A stretch of 64,000 bases of DNA, taken from NCBI RefSeq assembly GCF_055900595.2, contig NZ_CM148325.1. One strand, given 5' to 3'. The notes under the pieces are model-generated. The model saw only the letters and a program-made list of their open reading frames with translations. It was not told the origin of the DNA and did not search any database. A program made the position numbers and the translations under genes. Positions 15,729 through 26,316 of this stretch are shown here, one piece after another. Every line of letters begins with the position of its first letter. Position 1 is the stretch's first letter.

Positions 15729-16232
15729 TTATTGATAGTGTTTTATGTTCAGATAATGCCCGATGACTTTGTCATGCAGCTCCACCGATTTTGAGAACGA
15801 CAGCGACTTCCGTCCCAGCCGTGCCAGGTGCTGCCTCAGATTCAGGTTATGCCGCTCAATTCGCTGCGTATATCGCTTGCTGATTACGTGCAGCTTTCCC
15901 TTCAGGCGGGATTCATACAGCGGCCAGCCATCCGTCATCCATATCACCACGTCAAAGGGTGACAGCAGGCTCATAAGACGCCCCAGCGTCGCCATCGTGC
16001 GTTCACCGAATACGTGCGCAACAACCGTCTTCCGGAGCCTGTCATACGCGTAAAACAGCCAGCGCTGGCGCGATTTAGCCCCGACATAGCCCCACTGTTC
16101 GCCCATTTCCGCGCAGACGATGACGTCACTGCCCGGCTGTATGCGCGAGGTTACCGACTGCGGCCTGAGTTTTTTAAGTGACGTAAAATCGTGTTGAGGC
16201 CAACGCCCATAATGCGGGCTGTTGCCCGGCAT
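15729..16232 (-). CDS. insB: IS1 InsB (copy B)
   Basis: Identical to copy A InsB. Confidence 0.9.
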
Positions 16233-18254: not shown

Positions 18255-19520
18255 TCACCTTTTCAGTGGATTGTTAACTTTTGCATATTCAAACGGACTG
18301 ATACACTCCTCCCTGTTTGCATCCAGAAAATCTGCCCACCATTGCAGCATAAGCCGACGTTCTTCCAGATGTTCTGCTTTATGAATATACGCGGCACGTA
18401 CTCCGTTGCGCTCCTGATGACTCATCTGACGTTCAACCGCATCTCTTGACCATAAGCCGGATTCAATCAATGCACTGCACGCCATCGCCCGGAATCCATG
18501 GCCACAGACTTCCTTGGTTGTGTCATACCCCATCACTCTGAGGGCCTTATTTACGGTATTTTCACTGATTGGTTTACGTGGGTCGTGTGCTCCCGTAAAG
18601 ATCAGACCATTTTCACCTGCCCATGTCTGAAGTTCTGCCAGTATGGCTACAGCCTGTTGGCTGAGTGGCACAAGATGTGGTGTTCGCATCTTGGAGCCCC
18701 GGTATGAAAATTTTACGCCTGGCAGAGGTTCGCGTTCGGCTGGAATAGTCCACATGGCATTGTCAATATCAATTTCAGACCAGCGGGCATATCTGAGTTC
18801 ACTGGAACGAATAAAAACCAGTAAATTCAGCATAACTGCCAGTCGGGTGACAGGCTGGCCTTTATAACCGTCAATACGCGACAGAAGTTCAGGCAGGCGT
18901 GAAAGATCCAGAGCAGGGCGATGCTGGCGTTTTACCGTGGTCAATGCACCAGCCATATCCAGAGCCGGGTTATATCTGATGATGCCAGACTGTACGGCAT
19001 AACGCATTACAGCAGATATTCTTTGCTGCAGACGACTGGCGATTTCATAAATTTGTTTAACTTCTGCAGCACGAACAGGGATAAGCAGATCCGGGGTACT
19101 GAGTGTTGTGATATCCCGGTTGCCGATAAAGGGGAAAACGTGAGTCTCGAGGCTTTTGAGTACTTTATCGCTGTGTGATTGTGCCCATTGTTTATTACTG
19201 GCATGCCAGCGTCGTGCAATATGTTCAAAAGAGAGCTGTAAATCAGGGACTACTTTTTTAGCTCTTTTCTGTTCGCAAGGGTCAACCCCCTCCGAAATCA
19301 GTTTTCGGGCCTCATCCCGTTTTGTACGAGCTTCGGAGAGAGAAACTTCCGGATACACACCAAGTGCCAGGGTTTTCTCCTTACCCAGAATACGATAACG
19401 GAGACGCCAGTAACGGGAACCATTAGGATGTACCAGCAGGAACATGCCAGCCCCGTCAGTGAGTTTATAAGCCTTGTCAGTGGGCTTTGCAGCCCGGATT
19501 TTTGCGTCAGTCAGTGCCAT
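18255..19520 (-). CDS. P4-family tyrosine integrase (421 aa)
   Basis: N-terminus MALTDAKIRAAKPTDKAYKLTDGAGMFLLVHPNGSRYWRLRYRILGKEK typical of P4/CP4-type integrases; C-terminal catalytic region present. Confidence 0.9.
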   Translation of the reverse strand: MALTDAKIRAAKPTDKAYKLTDGAGMFLLVHPNGSRYWRLRYRILGKEKTLALGVYPEVSLSEARTKRDEARKLISEGVDPCEQKRAKKVVPDLQLSFEHIARRWHASNKQWAQSHSDKVLKSLETHVFPFIGNRDITTLSTPDLLIPVRAAEVKQIYEIASRLQQRISAVMRYAVQSGIIRYNPALDMAGALTTVKRQHRPALDLSRLPELLSRIDGYKGQPVTRLAVMLNLLVFIRSSELRYARWSEIDIDNAMWTIPAEREPLPGVKFSYRGSKMRTPHLVPLSQQAVAILAELQTWAGENGLIFTGAHDPRKPISENTVNKALRVMGYDTTKEVCGHGFRAMACSALIESGLWSRDAVERQMSHQERNGVRAAYIHKAEHLEERRLMLQWWADFLDANREECISPFEYAKVNNPLKR

Positions 19521-19983: not shown

Positions 19984-20310
19984 TTATGGCTGCCAGAAAT
20001 GATCTGATGGTTTGTCGTCTGGCTCTGCAAGTACCCTGTTGATATCCCGGGAACCATGAACGATACGTTCGATACGAACTTCAGTATCCAGTACCCTGAA
20101 CAGCAGAAGGTAACGACCATACGAACAACCTCTGATCCCTGCCCCTAACTCGGGTCTTTCTCTGTAGAGTACTGGCGATTCGGCTATCAACAGACATTGT
20201 TGGTAAAGCTCTTCGGTAAAACTGATTGCACGGACAGGATTATCCTGAGCGATCCAGTCACCTATAGCTTCAAGATCGTGTTCTGCTAATGGTGAAACAG
20301 TCAGTTTCAT
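19984..20310 (-). CDS. ParE/RelE-superfamily toxin (108 aa)
   Basis: Small basic protein immediately downstream of, and overlapping by 4 bp, a ParD-like antitoxin gene; ParE-like sequence by recall. Confidence 0.75.
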   Translation of the reverse strand: MKLTVSPLAEHDLEAIGDWIAQDNPVRAISFTEELYQQCLLIAESPVLYRERPELGAGIRGCSYGRYLLLFRVLDTEVRIERIVHGSRDINRVLAEPDDKPSDHFWQP

Positions 20311-20570
20311 ATTGGCTGTTCACCTTCTGCCATCTTTTTGTATTTGTGCGTCAGTCGCCCGAATACCTCTTCAGCACTTTTACTTTCACCGCTGTTGATG
20401 CCTGCGGTAACGGCGCTCTGGAGTGATTCAAGCTTTATCTGCTGTTCCCGTTCTTCCAGAGCACGAAGTCCGGCACGAATGACTTCACTTGTATTGTTAT
20501 ACCGACCACTTTCTATTTGTTCGCGGATAAACGTTTCAAAGTAAGGACTGAGGGATACACTGGTAGGCAT
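20307..20570 (-). CDS. ParD-family antitoxin (87 aa, RHH fold)
   Basis: MPTSVSLSPYFETFIREQIESGRYNNTSEVIRAGLRALEEREQQ is a typical ParD N-terminus. Confidence 0.75.
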   Translation of the reverse strand: MPTSVSLSPYFETFIREQIESGRYNNTSEVIRAGLRALEEREQQIKLESLQSAVTAGINSGESKSAEEVFGRLTHKYKKMAEGEQPI

Positions 20571-20641: not shown

Positions 20642-21508
20642 TTATGCCTTGCGGCTTTTGTTCACTGTGCTTGCCAGGGCTTCCGGGTAGTGTCTGACAA
20701 TAATATCATTAAGCCTGTCAACCAGTTCTGGTTTCCTGAACGTGATGTGCGCGGAGCCCTTCTTAAAGTATCTGATGCTGAACATCTCATCTTCATAGTC
20801 CTCTTTACCCTGAACAGACCGGATGTGCTCATTCAGATGAATGGTGATGTTTTCCCGGTTGTCGGGGATCGGTTTGCCGCTGAACAGATACAGCATTCTT
20901 TCCAGGTCGGCAAGTCGATCTGCCTGTTGCCCGGTGATAAGATGAAACCCCCACCGGTCCCACCTCACCAGGTTGTTGACGATAATTTTACTGCCAAATT
21001 TACAGGGTGAATTGTTTTCGTAATTCCAGCTCAGTCCCCTGAAAACATTGATCACCCCACGCTCAAACACTTCATCTTTGTTCTGGTGCAGTTGTTCAAA
21101 TGTGCTCAGAATGTTCGCTTCACTGATTTCCGGAAAATTATCGTATTCCAGTGACCGGTACCATGTATCACGGGCCTGCGCATCCATTAATGACAGCATC
21201 CCGGAACGTTGCATCAGGTCACGCCAGATTTCGCGATCGAGATTGCGGGTGATGGCTTTCATTGCTGTTTCCGGTTTATCCATGAGCCAGCATCCGCAGC
21301 GAAAATCCTGTTTCATCGCCCAGTCCCGTGCGCTTTTACCACCAATGCTTTTTGTCAGTACTGAGATTTCAGTCAGTTGCCGGATAAGCGTTTCGGTTTG
21401 TTGCAGTGCTGCATTCCGTACCGTCACAACGTGTCGGATACTGGTGGAGCAGATAACGTCCGTATTCCCGGTGACCACTTCCGGATGGGAGATTGTGATG
21501 TTTGACAT
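20642..21508 (-). CDS. Hypothetical protein, 288 aa (possibly DUF4942-type, common at the ends of CP4-like islands)
   Basis: Track ORF with coding-like composition; family assignment from memory only. Confidence 0.6.
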   Translation of the reverse strand: MSNITISHPEVVTGNTDVICSTSIRHVVTVRNAALQQTETLIRQLTEISVLTKSIGGKSARDWAMKQDFRCGCWLMDKPETAMKAITRNLDREIWRDLMQRSGMLSLMDAQARDTWYRSLEYDNFPEISEANILSTFEQLHQNKDEVFERGVINVFRGLSWNYENNSPCKFGSKIIVNNLVRWDRWGFHLITGQQADRLADLERMLYLFSGKPIPDNRENITIHLNEHIRSVQGKEDYEDEMFSIRYFKKGSAHITFRKPELVDRLNDIIVRHYPEALASTVNKSRKA

Positions 21509-21592
21509 TATCGGTTTCCCTTTTGGTTTATAAACGAAAACGCCAGCCGTATTCAGGCTGGCGTCAGTGGAATGAAGTCTGGTGAGTAAGGC

Positions 21593-21790
21593 TCACCGGT
21601 TCTGTTGCAGAAGCTGCAGTTGGCGCAGGGTATGGATATCCTCCCTCGCCTGTTCAATGCAGGGCAGCAGTGCTGCCGAATCCGTTTTATCCTCATCGTT
21701 GTCAAAGATAATTCCCGATTCGCAGTCGATATTGTCCTGCAGCCACGCAATCAGAATATCCAGTGCTGTTTCCGTGGTTAATGATTTCAT
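21593..21790 (-). CDS. YeeW-like small protein
   Basis: MKSLTTETALDILIAWLQDNIDCESGIIFDNDEDK... resembles YeeW/YpjJ-type proteins that follow cbtA-type toxin genes (recall). Confidence 0.55.
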   Translation of the reverse strand: MKSLTTETALDILIAWLQDNIDCESGIIFDNDEDKTDSAALLPCIEQAREDIHTLRQLQLLQQNR

Positions 21791-21801
21791 GTTGTTCCTG
21801 G

Positions 21802-22290
21802 TTACCAGTTGAAAGTGGGTAAACCCGGCAGGCATTCAGCGCTGGCATCCAGATGAATGAGACTGACGCCATAACGTCGGGTAAGTGTGACAACCAGACA
21901 ACGGAACGTTTTTGACAGGCCCAGGCGCTTAAGCCGCAGAACCGGGTATGACCACGCATCGGTACGTAACAGATAGCCGCTACCTGTGAAATGAATCCAT
22001 TCTGATTCACCAACGTCACTGGTCTGATGCGACAGCGAGTACAGCCAGGCGTTATCCTTTTCCGTGATATGTGCGGTACTGCAGCGTATGCCGGCAAGGG
22101 TTGCAAACGGTGGTAGTGTGCAGGTTGACTGTTGGTCGGATTCCTCCACCACGCGGAGTGAATAACCGTTTTCAGCGACCTTGTTAATCAGTTCAGTGAG
22201 ATTAACACCATCGACGTCAACGACAATTTGCCCCATGTTCAGTGCCTGCACATTAATTCTGTCGGCTTCCAGCATCAGGGAAAGTTTCAT
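21802..22290 (-). CDS. Hypothetical protein, 162 aa, start overlapping the cbtA-like stop
   Basis: Track ORF; 4-bp overlap with the upstream toxin gene suggests translational coupling; family not recognised. Confidence 0.45.
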
Positions 22291-22661
22291 CGTTTCTCCG
22301 GATGCTTACCCAGGGTAATGTTATTTACCGTTCTGTAATTGTCGCGGGTCATCAGGCCGGTCGCCCGGCGAGCCCGGAGGATATCAATACTGTTTATTAA
22401 CTGAGAGCGGGGACAAGTGCTGAATCCCGGCTGGTCGGTACGCACCAGCGCGTATTTTTCCACGAGAAAATTCACCGCATCACACAGTGAAATGCCAGCT
22501 TCAATATGCTGCTCAATCACACGTTCATCGGCGAACGGTGTGTCATTCAGTGTAAGGCCGTAATGCTGGCCCAGTAGTCGGGAGAGCAGAGTCTGCCAGA
22601 TGGTGACGGGAGACGGGCAGCTCGATGCCTCCCGTACGTGTGTATCGGGTAATGTTTTCAT
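22287..22661 (-). CDS. CbtA/YeeV/YkfI/YpjF-family type IV toxin (124 aa)
   Basis: ...[45 protein letters not shown]...[10 protein letters not shown] matches the recalled family. Confidence 0.85.
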
Positions 22662-22750
22662 ACTGAAGGTTTTCCTGATATGCAGAGATGAAAAATGGAA
22701 AAGTGGCGTGGTGAAAGCACCAGGCCGGAGCAGAAGGTTATTCCGGTGGT

Positions 22751-23119
22751 TTACTTTTTCGTTTCGGGCGTCGGATAAACAGCCAGATAAACGTAACCAC
22801 AGGAGCCGAGGGTGTCGGCTTCGCAGGTCAGCCCTTTCGCATACAGCGTGACGGTATGCTGATGTCGGGGATTCAGTTCACCGCTGGTGAGCATGAGTTC
22901 CAGTTGTTTCATCAGCAGCGGAAAGGCCTGGTCCAGATGGTATGCATCTGCGTCGCTGAAGCGGCCTCTGATACCGGCGCGGTCGGCAAGGTAATGCAGG
23001 CGGTTACCCTCCTGCACCAGACGGGCGCCAAAACAGGGCCTCACTGTGCAGGGAAGCCCCCACCAGGGGCGGTCGTGATTGTCGTCGGGATGAGTTATCC
23101 CGGAGAGTGTGTCTGACAC
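22751..23119 (-). CDS. CbeA/YeeU/YfjZ-family antitoxin (122 aa)
   Basis: [80 protein letters not shown] matches recalled YeeU. Confidence 0.85.
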
Positions 23120-23159
23120 GATAAAATCCTCTCTGAAAAGTGGTTAAGAATGGTTTAAC

Positions 23160-23801
23160 GATGACAGGTCAGCCGGTGCGCTGACCGGTTTCGGTGAAGA
23201 TGTATGCATTGATGAGAATGGCCTCATCCACAGCGGCGTCTGAGGTCATCTGGTCGTACTCGTTTTCCAGTTGACGGTACAGCCAGAAGGCCAGGTCGCG
23301 CAGGGCTTCGCTGACAGCGGCTTCCGCATCGGCTGTCATAGCCTGACCAGTCGGACTGTTCCGGGTAACAGTGATAACGGATGGCAGTAACGTCCCCGGT
23401 GGTGGATTTCAGCCTGCAGTTGCCAGAAGTTACGTTTCTGCACCGCCTGCAGGGCATCCGCGATACGATGAAGCTCACGGTTCTGCGGGGCATACTCCCG
23501 GACTCTCCTGGTTGTTGCTGACTGCCAGTGCCAGCGTCCTTCAAAACAGGCTCCGTCCCTGGCTGCAGAATCCGCTGAACCAGATGCACGGCTCTTCCAT
23601 AAACCTGCCGTTGCTGAGACGGATAACACGCTGGCAGAGGTCAATTCCGAAAATGCCACAGACCTCCCTGACGTCCTCATACACGTTTTCATACCAGTTG
23701 CTGTCAGCATGATGCTGACGGTACCCGTCGCGGGCTTTTTCCCGTGCCGGGCAGGAAAGTTCATCCAGCGTATACACTGTGATGGTGATAATTCTGCTCA
23801 T
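23160..23801 (-). pseudogene. Frameshifted gene between yeeT-like and cbeA-like genes (product unknown)
   Basis: Three overlapping track ORFs in three frames (23541..23801, 23336..23764, 23224..23589) plus a readable C-terminal peptide (...AVSEALRDLAFWLYRQLENEYDQMTSDAAVDEAILINAY...) point to one roughly 210-aa gene broken by frameshifts. Confidence 0.45.
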
Positions 23802-24105: not shown

Positions 24106-24582
24106 TTAAAGCAGACCGTGTTCGGCAAAGGAGAATACCTGGCTGCCACCGACTATCAGATGGTCCGGCACCCGGATATCCACCAGGGCCAGCGCCTGAA
24201 CCAGACGTTCCGTAATAAGCCGGTCTGCCTTACTGGGAGTGACTTCACCGGACGGGTGGTTGTGTGCCAGTATCACGGCGGCGGCATTGTGGTACAGGGC
24301 GCGTTTAATCACTTCCCGGGGATGGACTTCCGTGCGGTTGATGGTGCCGGTGAAGAGGGTTTCACCGGCAATCAGCTGATTCTGGTTGTTCAGATACAGC
24401 ACCCGGAACTCTTCACGCTCCAGTCCCGCCATGTTCAGAATCAGCCATTCCCGTGCCGCATGCGTGGAGGTGAAGGCCACGCCGGGTTCATGAAGATGAC
24501 GGTCCAGGGTTTTCAGGGCCCGCTGAATGAGGCTGCGCTCACCGGGTGTCATCTCTCCGGGCAGAAAGGAAAGTTGTTGCAT
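24106..24582 (-). CDS. RadC-like JAB-domain protein (YeeS/YfjY/YkfG family)
   Basis: Track ORF trimmed to MQQLSFLPGEM...; HNHPSG JAMM motif present. Confidence 0.85.
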   Translation of the reverse strand: MQQLSFLPGEMTPGERSLIQRALKTLDRHLHEPGVAFTSTHAAREWLILNMAGLEREEFRVLYLNNQNQLIAGETLFTGTINRTEVHPREVIKRALYHNAAAVILAHNHPSGEVTPSKADRLITERLVQALALVDIRVPDHLIVGGSQVFSFAEHGLL

Positions 24583-24597
24583 TGTGCTTCTCTCCAT

Positions 24598-25083
24598 TCA
24601 GTCGATGATGCGCATAATGGCGCTGCATTCCGGATGCTGCAGGGCATAATCCCGCAGCCGGTAATAATGGACCGTCATGGCATAACACTCCGTACGACAG
24701 GCATGATGACTGTACGTCATCAGACAGGCAGCAATGCCGGCGGCTTCCGGGCTCATTTCAGCGCGGTTACCGTTCATGGCATTGAACAGTACCCATGTTT
24801 CGTCATCATCGTCATCCGGTTCGGGTGCCATAAATGCCCCGCCGTTGTTCAGGGTGTACAGATTCCAGATACCACCGCAGTAGTCTTCGCACAGACGGTC
24901 CATCCAGCCGAAGACACGGGGCTCCAGGGTCACCCACTGTGGAATGAGGCCAAAGTGCTGCGGCCAGAAGCTGATGCGCTGTTCATCAGGGACTATGGTG
25001 GCAACCAGCTGAGACTGGTTATTCCCTGATGCAGTAGTTACGGAAACAGAAGGTGTGGTGAAATTATGCGAAGAGGTTGTCAT
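24598..25083 (-). CDS. Anti-restriction protein (YfjX/KlcA/ArdB-like), 161 aa
   Basis: Acidic stretch PEPDDDDDETW and overall similarity to recalled YfjX/YafX-type proteins. Confidence 0.75.
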   Translation of the reverse strand: MTTSSHNFTTPSVSVTTASGNNQSQLVATIVPDEQRISFWPQHFGLIPQWVTLEPRVFGWMDRLCEDYCGGIWNLYTLNNGGAFMAPEPDDDDDETWVLFNAMNGNRAEMSPEAAGIAACLMTYSHHACRTECYAMTVHYYRLRDYALQHPECSAIMRIID

Positions 25084-25173: not shown

Positions 25174-25992
25174 TCAGCGCAGGCTCTCCAGCAACGTTTC
25201 CGCCATCACCCATAACGCGCGATTGAGCTTAATGTCGGTGTCAATGCTGTGAATGGCCCGGGTATGGATACGTTTTCCTTTTGCACTGCGACCGGAAATC
25301 CCGCCTTTCAGCATATTCTCCTGGATGGTCTGATAAGCACTCCACAGGTCCTTACCGTAATCCTCCCGGCGTCGTGGCGTCAGAATGTCGGCGGTGGTGA
25401 CGAGGTGATGTTCGTCACCATAACGGTAAGTCAGTGCCGCCTGTGCCAGCGCCTGGCGTGCCGGTGGCGGCAGGACCAGCGACTGCATGGCATCACGCTT
25501 TTCCTCAATCCGGTCAAAAACGCCCACCACTTCGTAAGCCCCTTCAATAACTTTCTCCACCACGTCTCCCCGGTGTGGAACACGCACTTCCCCCAGAGAC
25601 TGACCACAGACGCAGCCGTTCTGGCAGACGAACCTGAAGTAACCCGGCAGCATCTGGTAGCTGGAGGTACCGTCATGGGAGTTCAGCAGGATGATTTCAG
25701 GGACATGTTGTCCGTTTATCTCTCCGTCACGGCGCAGACGCAGCATGTGTTTGGTATACCCCCGGCGGCCCGGGTCACGTACGCGGGTCTGGCAGGCAAA
25801 GAAGGGCTGAAAGCCTTCCCGCTGCAGGCTTTCCAGCACGGTGATGGTGGGGATCCAGGTATAGTTCTCGCTTCTGGATGTGTGCTTATCTTCCCCGAAT
25901 ACGCTGGGGACGACCTGCATCAGTTCTTCGCGAGTTAAGGGGCGGTCACGGCGTATCTGGTTCGCATAACCAAAACGACTGGCTAATCGCAT
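25174..25992 (-). CDS. DUF932-family protein (YfjQ/YafZ-like), 272 aa
   Basis: Size, position between the GTPase/regulator genes and the anti-restriction gene, and recalled similarity to YfjQ. Confidence 0.7.
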   Translation of the reverse strand: MRLASRFGYANQIRRDRPLTREELMQVVPSVFGEDKHTSRSENYTWIPTITVLESLQREGFQPFFACQTRVRDPGRRGYTKHMLRLRRDGEINGQHVPEIILLNSHDGTSSYQMLPGYFRFVCQNGCVCGQSLGEVRVPHRGDVVEKVIEGAYEVVGVFDRIEEKRDAMQSLVLPPPARQALAQAALTYRYGDEHHLVTTADILTPRRREDYGKDLWSAYQTIQENMLKGGISGRSAKGKRIHTRAIHSIDTDIKLNRALWVMAETLLESLR

Positions 25993-26082: not shown

Positions 26083-26316
26083 TTATTGTCTGGGAAGCCC
26101 TTCACTGGCGAGCCACGCATTAAGTTGTTTGCCGGCATCGTATTCAAAATTCCAGCACCGCCAGCGCAACTGACCTTCAGCATTGTGGATAACCAGCCGG
26201 AAATGCGTTCCCTGGTCATTTTCGATAAACACATTGCGATAAGCTGTTGTGATGGCAACCGCCTGCTCTCGAGAGAAAGGGCCTTCGGGCAATAAAACAG
26301 GGTGACAGTCCGACAT
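26083..26316 (-). CDS. Small hypothetical protein (77 aa)
   Basis: Track ORF in a gene-dense, co-directional stretch; family not recognised. Confidence 0.45.

Follow-up and report, generated by a model that had tools for sequence, protein, structure and literature searches.

We examined a 64,000-nucleotide stretch of contig NZ_CM148325.1 (RefSeq assembly GCF_055900595.2), hereafter called the window, which contains a CbtA/CbeA toxin-antitoxin (TA) locus and, overlapping the end of its toxin gene, an open reading frame (ORF) of 162 amino acids (aa). This ORF proved to be the already catalogued full-length yeeW gene, a member of the DUF5983 family of which Escherichia coli K-12 holds a 64-aa remnant, and we lean towards the reading that its product, YeeW, is a co-expressed accessory protein of mobile elements and not a required TA component. 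The TA locus itself, recognised in an original prediction made from the sequence alone, was confirmed by matches to the Pfam families CbtA_toxin and CbeA_antitoxin (Table 1). The CbtA of the window covered positions 1-112 of the 112-position toxin profile, and its exact sequence, named 'Aec76', was found on at least 1000 public contigs. The antitoxin gene cbeA lies directly upstream of cbtA on the same strand, which is the arrangement of the type IV CbtA/CbeA system. Systems of this type are defined by a toxin that inhibits FtsZ and MreB and by an antitoxin that neutralises its effect with no direct contact between the two proteins.

The 162-aa ORF matched both DUF5983_N (1.8e-28, 98.4 bits) and DUF5983 (7e-21, 74.8 bits), where the curated Pfam cut-off is 27. 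At least 1000 public contigs carry the exact protein, which goes by 'Aec77' or by 'MULTISPECIES: DUF5983 family protein [Escherichia]'. The K-12 yeeW gene (b2006, 64 aa, in CP4-44) opens, like the ORF, with an ATGA shared with cbtA. Its product aligned to residues 5-56 of the ORF with 71% identity (E = 3e-26) and was itself matched by DUF5983_N at 2e-29. At the DNA level, homology between the window and K-12 ran from cbtA up to 22142, was then interrupted, and resumed at 21675, so that K-12 yeeW is the remnant of an internal deletion. This deletion took out the DUF5983 C-terminal domain (C-domain) together with the first half of the DUF957 gene that follows. Full-length YeeW proteins from other islands were also tested and do align with the 162-aa ORF, and the gene table of the Shigella SRL island gives YeeV, orf54 = L0008/YeeW, DUF957 and DUF4942 in series. 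A comparison with the CP4-44, CP4-57 and CP4-6 paralogues, proposed with the original prediction, was carried out and identified K-12 yeeW as the homologue of the ORF, with no such gene accompanying ypjF or ykfI. The original prediction had itself named the possibility that the ORF was simply the known full-length yeeW, and this is what the position, the overlap and the identity to the K-12 gene show, leaving no new gene. The name yeeW belongs to this 162-aa gene and not to the small gene after it, and K-12 is a poor reference for yeeW because its copy is a deletion remnant.

The predicted 4-bp overlap with cbtA is plain from the sequence itself. The minus strand runs GAG AAA CGA TGA AAC across the junction, where the TGA of cbtA and the ATG of yeeW share ATGA (22287-22290), and a Shine-Dalgarno-like GGAG motif lies inside cbtA, 5 nt upstream of the overlap. 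Both the ATGA overlap and the G-rich motif upstream of it were kept in 13 of the 13 loci examined, from five genera. The gene order DUF987-CbeA-CbtA-DUF5983-DUF957-DUF4942 was observed in E. albertii, Yokenella, Citrobacter and Edwardsiella, with DUF5983 identity down to 63-64%; this cross-species survey was narrow, a single-protein scan of genome contigs that yielded 12 loci. The ratio of nonsynonymous to synonymous substitution rates (dN/dS) was 0.16-0.34 for the yeeW ORF (pairs with a synonymous rate, dS, of up to 0.38) and 0.13-0.26 for cbtA, and by these sequence comparisons the ORF is shown to be a real protein-coding gene under purifying selection. All full-length homologues were 162-163 aa long, a length kept down to 63% identity, and H74 and D79 were invariant across 37 sequences. 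The C-domain motif S-T-A-H-I-T..D-N ... E-W-I-H ... F-D/N-W is present in the ORF, which belongs to a small family (213 clusters at 50% identity). YeeW would be translated from the cbeA-cbtA mRNA, either by re-initiation at the ATGA or from its own ribosome-binding motif.

Two further observations were made at this junction. The part of cbtA that encodes its extended C-terminal tail (22287-22340) also holds the yeeW ribosome-binding motif and the overlap, and the K-12 paralogues YpjF and YkfI (L021 5954-6283; L022 4829-5170) have neither yeeW nor the extended tail. Yokenella regensburgei carries tandem cbtA-like genes (L010 2652-2972 and 3127-3498), whose products are 46% and 66% identical to the CbtA of the window, and yeeW follows only the second of these.

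An AlphaFold2 (AF2) model of the 162-aa YeeW had a predicted local distance difference test score (pLDDT) of 86.5 and showed a disordered linker (residues 51-57) that connects a small N-terminal domain to an alpha/beta C-domain with pLDDT >90. Structure comparison found no solved relative of YeeW, SecB-like chaperones included, and a Foldseek search against viral models returned as its only structural matches phage proteins of the DUF5983 family. In one homologue of 247 aa (P0136) an insertion of ~85 aa with a CPDC motif was observed between the N- and C-domains, and the DUF5983 linker therefore tolerates large insertions. Homologues with the C-domain only (96-188 aa) were found at the end of the leading regions of F-like plasmids, beside an SLT gene, traM and traY, including three independent plasmid contexts in which DUF5983 is next to SLT/traM (L019 3003-3308, L024 5001-5291, L025 5001-5294). 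Their other neighbours included PsiA, an orphan N6 methyltransferase (N6_Mtase) and antirestriction (Antirestrict) or DUF932 genes, and no CbtA was observed near the C-domain-only genes in the contexts inspected. A published survey of leading regions (Samuel et al., Nature 2024; PMC11541004, supplementary file 3) gives DUF5983 the family number 72, counting 618 members at a median position of 2 from the origin of transfer (oriT; false discovery rate (FDR) p = 6.6e-199). The same table contains DUF4942 (families 24 and 76), DUF905, DUF945/DUF932 and KlcA families, and most of the island block in the window thus corresponds, on the chromosome, to the sets of genes found in plasmid leading regions. 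DUF5983 is in this respect a widespread mobile-element family, predicted to be well folded and with no solved relative, that is found in two contexts, after cbtA and beside plasmid oriT.

In the scheme we favour, YeeW would not be a required part of the CbtA/CbeA pair, and its C-domain family would be one carried by mobile elements, beside oriT in plasmid leading regions and also by lytic phages. Because the C-domain family sits near oriT and in lytic phages, YeeW would most likely act for the mobile element as it enters or settles in a host, in a role of the establishment or anti-defence type, and it probably does not act on CbtA. Several points weigh against this scheme. Experimental work on YeeW or DUF5983 was not found in the literature searched, and the plasmid and phage relatives share the C-domain alone, at 33-43% identity. 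Since the N-terminal domain was not seen in these relatives, a role related to the toxin could exist in the cbtA-linked form and be missing from the plasmid forms. The CbtA proteins linked to yeeW are 124-125 aa long, with a tail ~12-15 aa longer than those of YpjF and YkfI (109 and 113 aa), and the strict adjacency and the ATGA overlap across genera also fit a functional link with CbtA.

These last observations are shared with the alternative that YeeW/DUF5983 is a third component of CbtA/CbeA, acting as a modulator, a second antitoxin, a chaperone or a sensor of a trigger, which we regard as unlikely. The original prediction had suggested such an additional partner of the toxin, and the idea is not new, as a downstream 'partner' is listed in an E. 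coli survey in which DUF5983 was always found downstream of CbtA (PMC10790755). That listing agrees with the position of yeeW immediately after cbtA, with the ATGA overlap, in all 13 loci and five genera, and the longer C-terminal tail of yeeW-linked CbtA and an N-terminal domain seen here in cbtA-linked proteins only would also suit a third component. It is doubtful, too, that YeeW is held at a fixed ratio to CbtA by the coupling and binds the toxin, e.g. through its N-domain and the extended CbtA tail. Rare fused CbtA-DUF5983 predictions (P0002; also in a preprint) point the same way, though they resemble frameshift artefacts. On the other side, an AF2 model of a CbtA-G25-YeeW fusion had a predicted template modelling score (pTM) of 0.37, no confident packing and a loss of confidence in the YeeW N-domain; it points weakly against a complex, as a weak test given its shallow paired alignment and lack of interface scores. 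The association also fails in both directions: the YkfI/YafW and YpjF/YfjZ pairs have no DUF5983 gene, YeeW is truncated at the K-12 cbtA/cbeA locus, and many plasmids and phages have the DUF5983 C-domain but no CbtA. DUF5983 is thus not found solely with the TA pair, and we do not favour the partner idea.

Toxicity and neutralisation were reportedly established with the K-12 genes by Brown and Shaw in 2003, Tan in 2011 and Masuda in 2012, toxin and antitoxin being two genes. Because the K-12 YeeW is truncated, that work would have missed any modulation of CbtA by the full-length protein. A more specific form of the idea is that full-length YeeW is a true CbtA modulator, with the N-domain docking on the CbtA tail and the C-domain sensing or counteracting a host or phage factor. 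We consider this quite improbable; if true, it would connect a toxin directed at the cytoskeleton with the way mobile elements establish or defend themselves.

It is very unlikely that the 162-aa ORF is a functionless passenger, a decaying or selfish remnant kept by its linkage to the TA pair. The lack of a known function, a truncation in K-12 with no known consequence and the many truncated or frameshifted database entries would fit such a passenger, but the dN/dS values of 0.16-0.34 at dS of up to 0.38, the length of 162-163 aa kept to 63% identity, the invariant H74 and D79, the confident fold prediction and the enrichment of the family at one set place in the leading regions of plasmids all speak against it.

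Upstream of the TA pair, between the yeeT-like gene and cbeA, the original prediction had described a gene of roughly 210 aa broken into three frames. The gene is indeed broken, and its intact homologue is 214 aa long; its three pieces lie in two frames and not in three. Relative to the intact gene of E. coli ZYB39, the first lesion shortens a run of G by 2 bp (from GGGGG to GGG, 23557-23559), and the second is a 10-bp loss of ACAGCATGGA between 23377 and 23376, in non-repetitive sequence. A stop codon at 23541-23543, 6 codons past the first shift, ends the reading after codon 86, and ~60 codons between the two lesions are out of frame. The two deletions sum to -12, and the third piece is therefore back in the frame of the first. 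When the 12 missing bases were put back the 214-aa ORF was restored, and most residues of the repaired protein agreed with those of its intact ZYB39 homologue.

A homopolymer sequencing error as the cause of the frameshifts was ruled out when these positions were checked. E. coli F374 has the identical two deletions, in a copy that RefSeq marks as a frameshifted pseudogene, and the exact 86-aa and 56-aa fragments were found on 544 and 478 public contigs, respectively. Among complete E. coli genomes, ~115 had the junction of the 10-bp deletion (at least 99% identity), compared with ~1,940 that had the intact junction (at least 90% identity). The frameshifts are inherited, and the broken gene is a pseudogene allele. 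That the gene is still alive, its full-length protein produced by programmed ribosomal frameshifting or masked by sequencing errors, is extremely unlikely: a total of -12 with the last piece in the first frame and a first deletion within a G run would be compatible with it, but the 10-bp lesion is non-repetitive, the out-of-frame stretch is long and meets a stop 6 codons after the first shift, independent assemblies share the allele, which excludes a read error in the window, intact alleles are far commoner, and RefSeq calls the F374 copy a pseudogene.

The stop of the middle piece and the ATG of the last piece form an ATGA (CTATGA, 23336-23339), so that re-initiation of the 56-aa tail is conceivable, and this tail is called as a protein of its own in many assemblies. 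The CTATGA overlap in the pseudogene is probably coincidental. The 214-aa gene is optional in these islands and is absent from TUM10828 and K-12. The intact protein had phrog_5162 as its sole profile match (2.6e-36) and is named 'antitoxin of toxin-antitoxin stability system' in RefSeq; no Pfam match and no relative in the PDB were found for it.

Downstream of yeeW, the small gene that the original prediction had labelled YeeW-like was wrongly named. It encodes a 65-aa DUF957 protein that has no similarity to K-12 YeeW (no BLASTP match even at E = 100), and at least 1000 contigs carry the exact protein, named 'MULTISPECIES: DUF957 domain-containing protein'. An 80-aa ORF at 21593-21835 is an upstream extension of this gene that overlaps the end of the 162-aa ORF. 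The dN/dS of 0.07-0.28 indicates that DUF957 is a real gene, and no Pfam model in the library copy used was matched by the 65-aa protein. The distance between the starts of yeeW and DUF957 was 500, 508, 521 or 523 nt depending on the locus (2, 1, 2 and 1 modulo 3), and given this variable frame relation the two are separate genes.

The DUF957 gene is probably the same as AntiFam family ANF00264, a 'spurious' family that a 2026 preprint argues to be real. A programmed frameshift joining yeeW to the small gene, as put forward in the preprint for ANF00264, is unlikely, with a gap of 11-29 nt between the genes and a frame offset that varies. The 200-aa 'fusions' P0058 and P0111 are read-through products in which the small gene is translated out of its frame.

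The relevant genes all lie on the minus strand of the window (Table 1), and together they make up a normal copy of the terminal module conserved in E. coli integrative islands of the CP4-44/CP4-57 type. The order of the module is DUF932, antirestriction, RadC, DUF987 (yeeT), cbeA, cbtA, yeeW (DUF5983), DUF957 and DUF4942, and the DUF4942 gene was syntenic in all full-length loci compared. The yeeW copy of the window sits in a chromosomal island that carries an integrase, and no tRNA gene was found anywhere in the 64 kb. The region had a match in 4,968 of the 5,426 complete genomes of E. coli compared. Its best E. coli matches were mosaic, with ~94-96% identity. The PADLOC and NCBIfam profile libraries gave no match for the small genes. 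A terminator-like hairpin just past the DUF957 stop, whose sequence is kept in K-12 CP4-44, likely marks the end of a cbeA-cbtA-yeeW-DUF957 transcription unit; hairpin sites in the region were in total not above chance, and only the position of this one is suggestive.

Table 1. Features of the island block around the cbtA-yeeW junction, in coordinates of the window.
Feature	Position	Strand	Basis or remark
DUF905 gene	26083-26316	minus	
DUF932 gene	25174-25992	minus	RefSeq annotation of syntenic loci
Antirestriction gene	24598-25083	minus	RefSeq annotation of syntenic loci
RadC/JAB gene	24106-24597	minus	Pfam RadC 2.2e-45
DUF987/yeeT-like gene, 73 aa	23816-24037	minus	Pfam DUF987 3.7e-39
Pseudogene of the 214-aa protein (pieces 23541-23801, ~23336-23557, 23169-23339)	23169-23801	minus	Alignment to ZYB39 and F374
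cbeA (yeeU-type) antitoxin gene, 122 aa, GTG start, intact	22751-23119	minus	CbeA_antitoxin PF06154 7.8e-55
cbtA (yeeV-type) toxin gene, 124 aa, intact	22287-22661	minus	CbtA_toxin PF06755 9.6e-62
Full-length yeeW/DUF5983 gene, 162 aa ('Aec77', 'L0008')	21802-22290	minus	Pfam DUF5983_N and DUF5983
DUF957 gene, 65 aa	21593-21790	minus	RefSeq name of homologues
Terminator-like hairpin, 10 pairs (7 G-C), T-rich tail	21539-21565	minus	Just 3' of the DUF957 stop
DUF4942 gene (YdiA-like, methyltransferase-related), 288 aa, last of the conserved block	20642-21508	minus	Pfam DUF4942 2.2e-66
ParD/ParE pair, end of the island block	19984-20570		
Tyrosine integrase, end of the island block with ParD/ParE	18255-19520		
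IS1 transposase nearby	15729-16232		

Public databases and papers already cover the locus, the family of the 162-aa protein, the coupling of yeeW to cbtA, and the pseudogene allele. Apparently, a deletion or co-expression experiment with the full-length locus has never been reported. What YeeW does is a question for the DUF5983 family as a whole, and nothing unusual in the window prompts it.

Among known systems, tripartite toxin-antitoxin-chaperone systems likewise have a third conserved gene in the operon, right after the TA pair. They differ from the locus described here in that YeeW has no SecB-like similarity and paralogous CbtA pairs lack YeeW. Plasmid leading-region family 72 (PMC11541004) has the DUF5983 C-domain in common with YeeW (33-43% identity) and similar neighbours (DUF932, antirestriction and methyltransferase/DUF4942 genes). 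The plasmid proteins, ~96-110 aa long, consist of the C-domain only and lie about two genes from oriT with no cbtA upstream, whereas the window copy has the additional N-domain and sits in a chromosomal island. The K-12 islands CP4-57 (yfjZ-ypjF) and CP4-6 (yafW-ykfI) show the same order of DUF987, antitoxin and toxin after RadC and antirestriction genes, but there the toxin gene is the end of the island, with no DUF5983, DUF957 or DUF4942 after it, and their toxins are 109 and 113 aa long compared with 124 aa. In the RefSeq annotation of K-12 CP4-57 (L021 4420-5369), yfjX appears as lfgA ('putative antirestriction protein') and yfjY as lfgB ('CP4-57 prophage protease'), a renaming that suggests recent functional work on the RadC/JAB neighbours.

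The closest counterparts are the islands that carry yeeW itself. The yeeT-cbeA(yeeU)-cbtA(yeeV)-yeeW segment of K-12 CP4-44 agrees with the window in gene order and in the ATGA overlap, at identities of 88% for CbtA, 92% for CbeA and 71% for the YeeW N-domain, and differs in its 64-aa yeeW remnant, in the loss of half of DUF957 and in lacking the optional 214-aa gene. The Shigella SRL island (L0007/L0008-L0010, orf53-56) contains the same genes with nothing of substance different, and in the selC island of avian pathogenic E. coli (APEC) the proteins Aec76 and Aec77 (UniProt) are identical in sequence to the CbtA and the 162-aa protein of the window.

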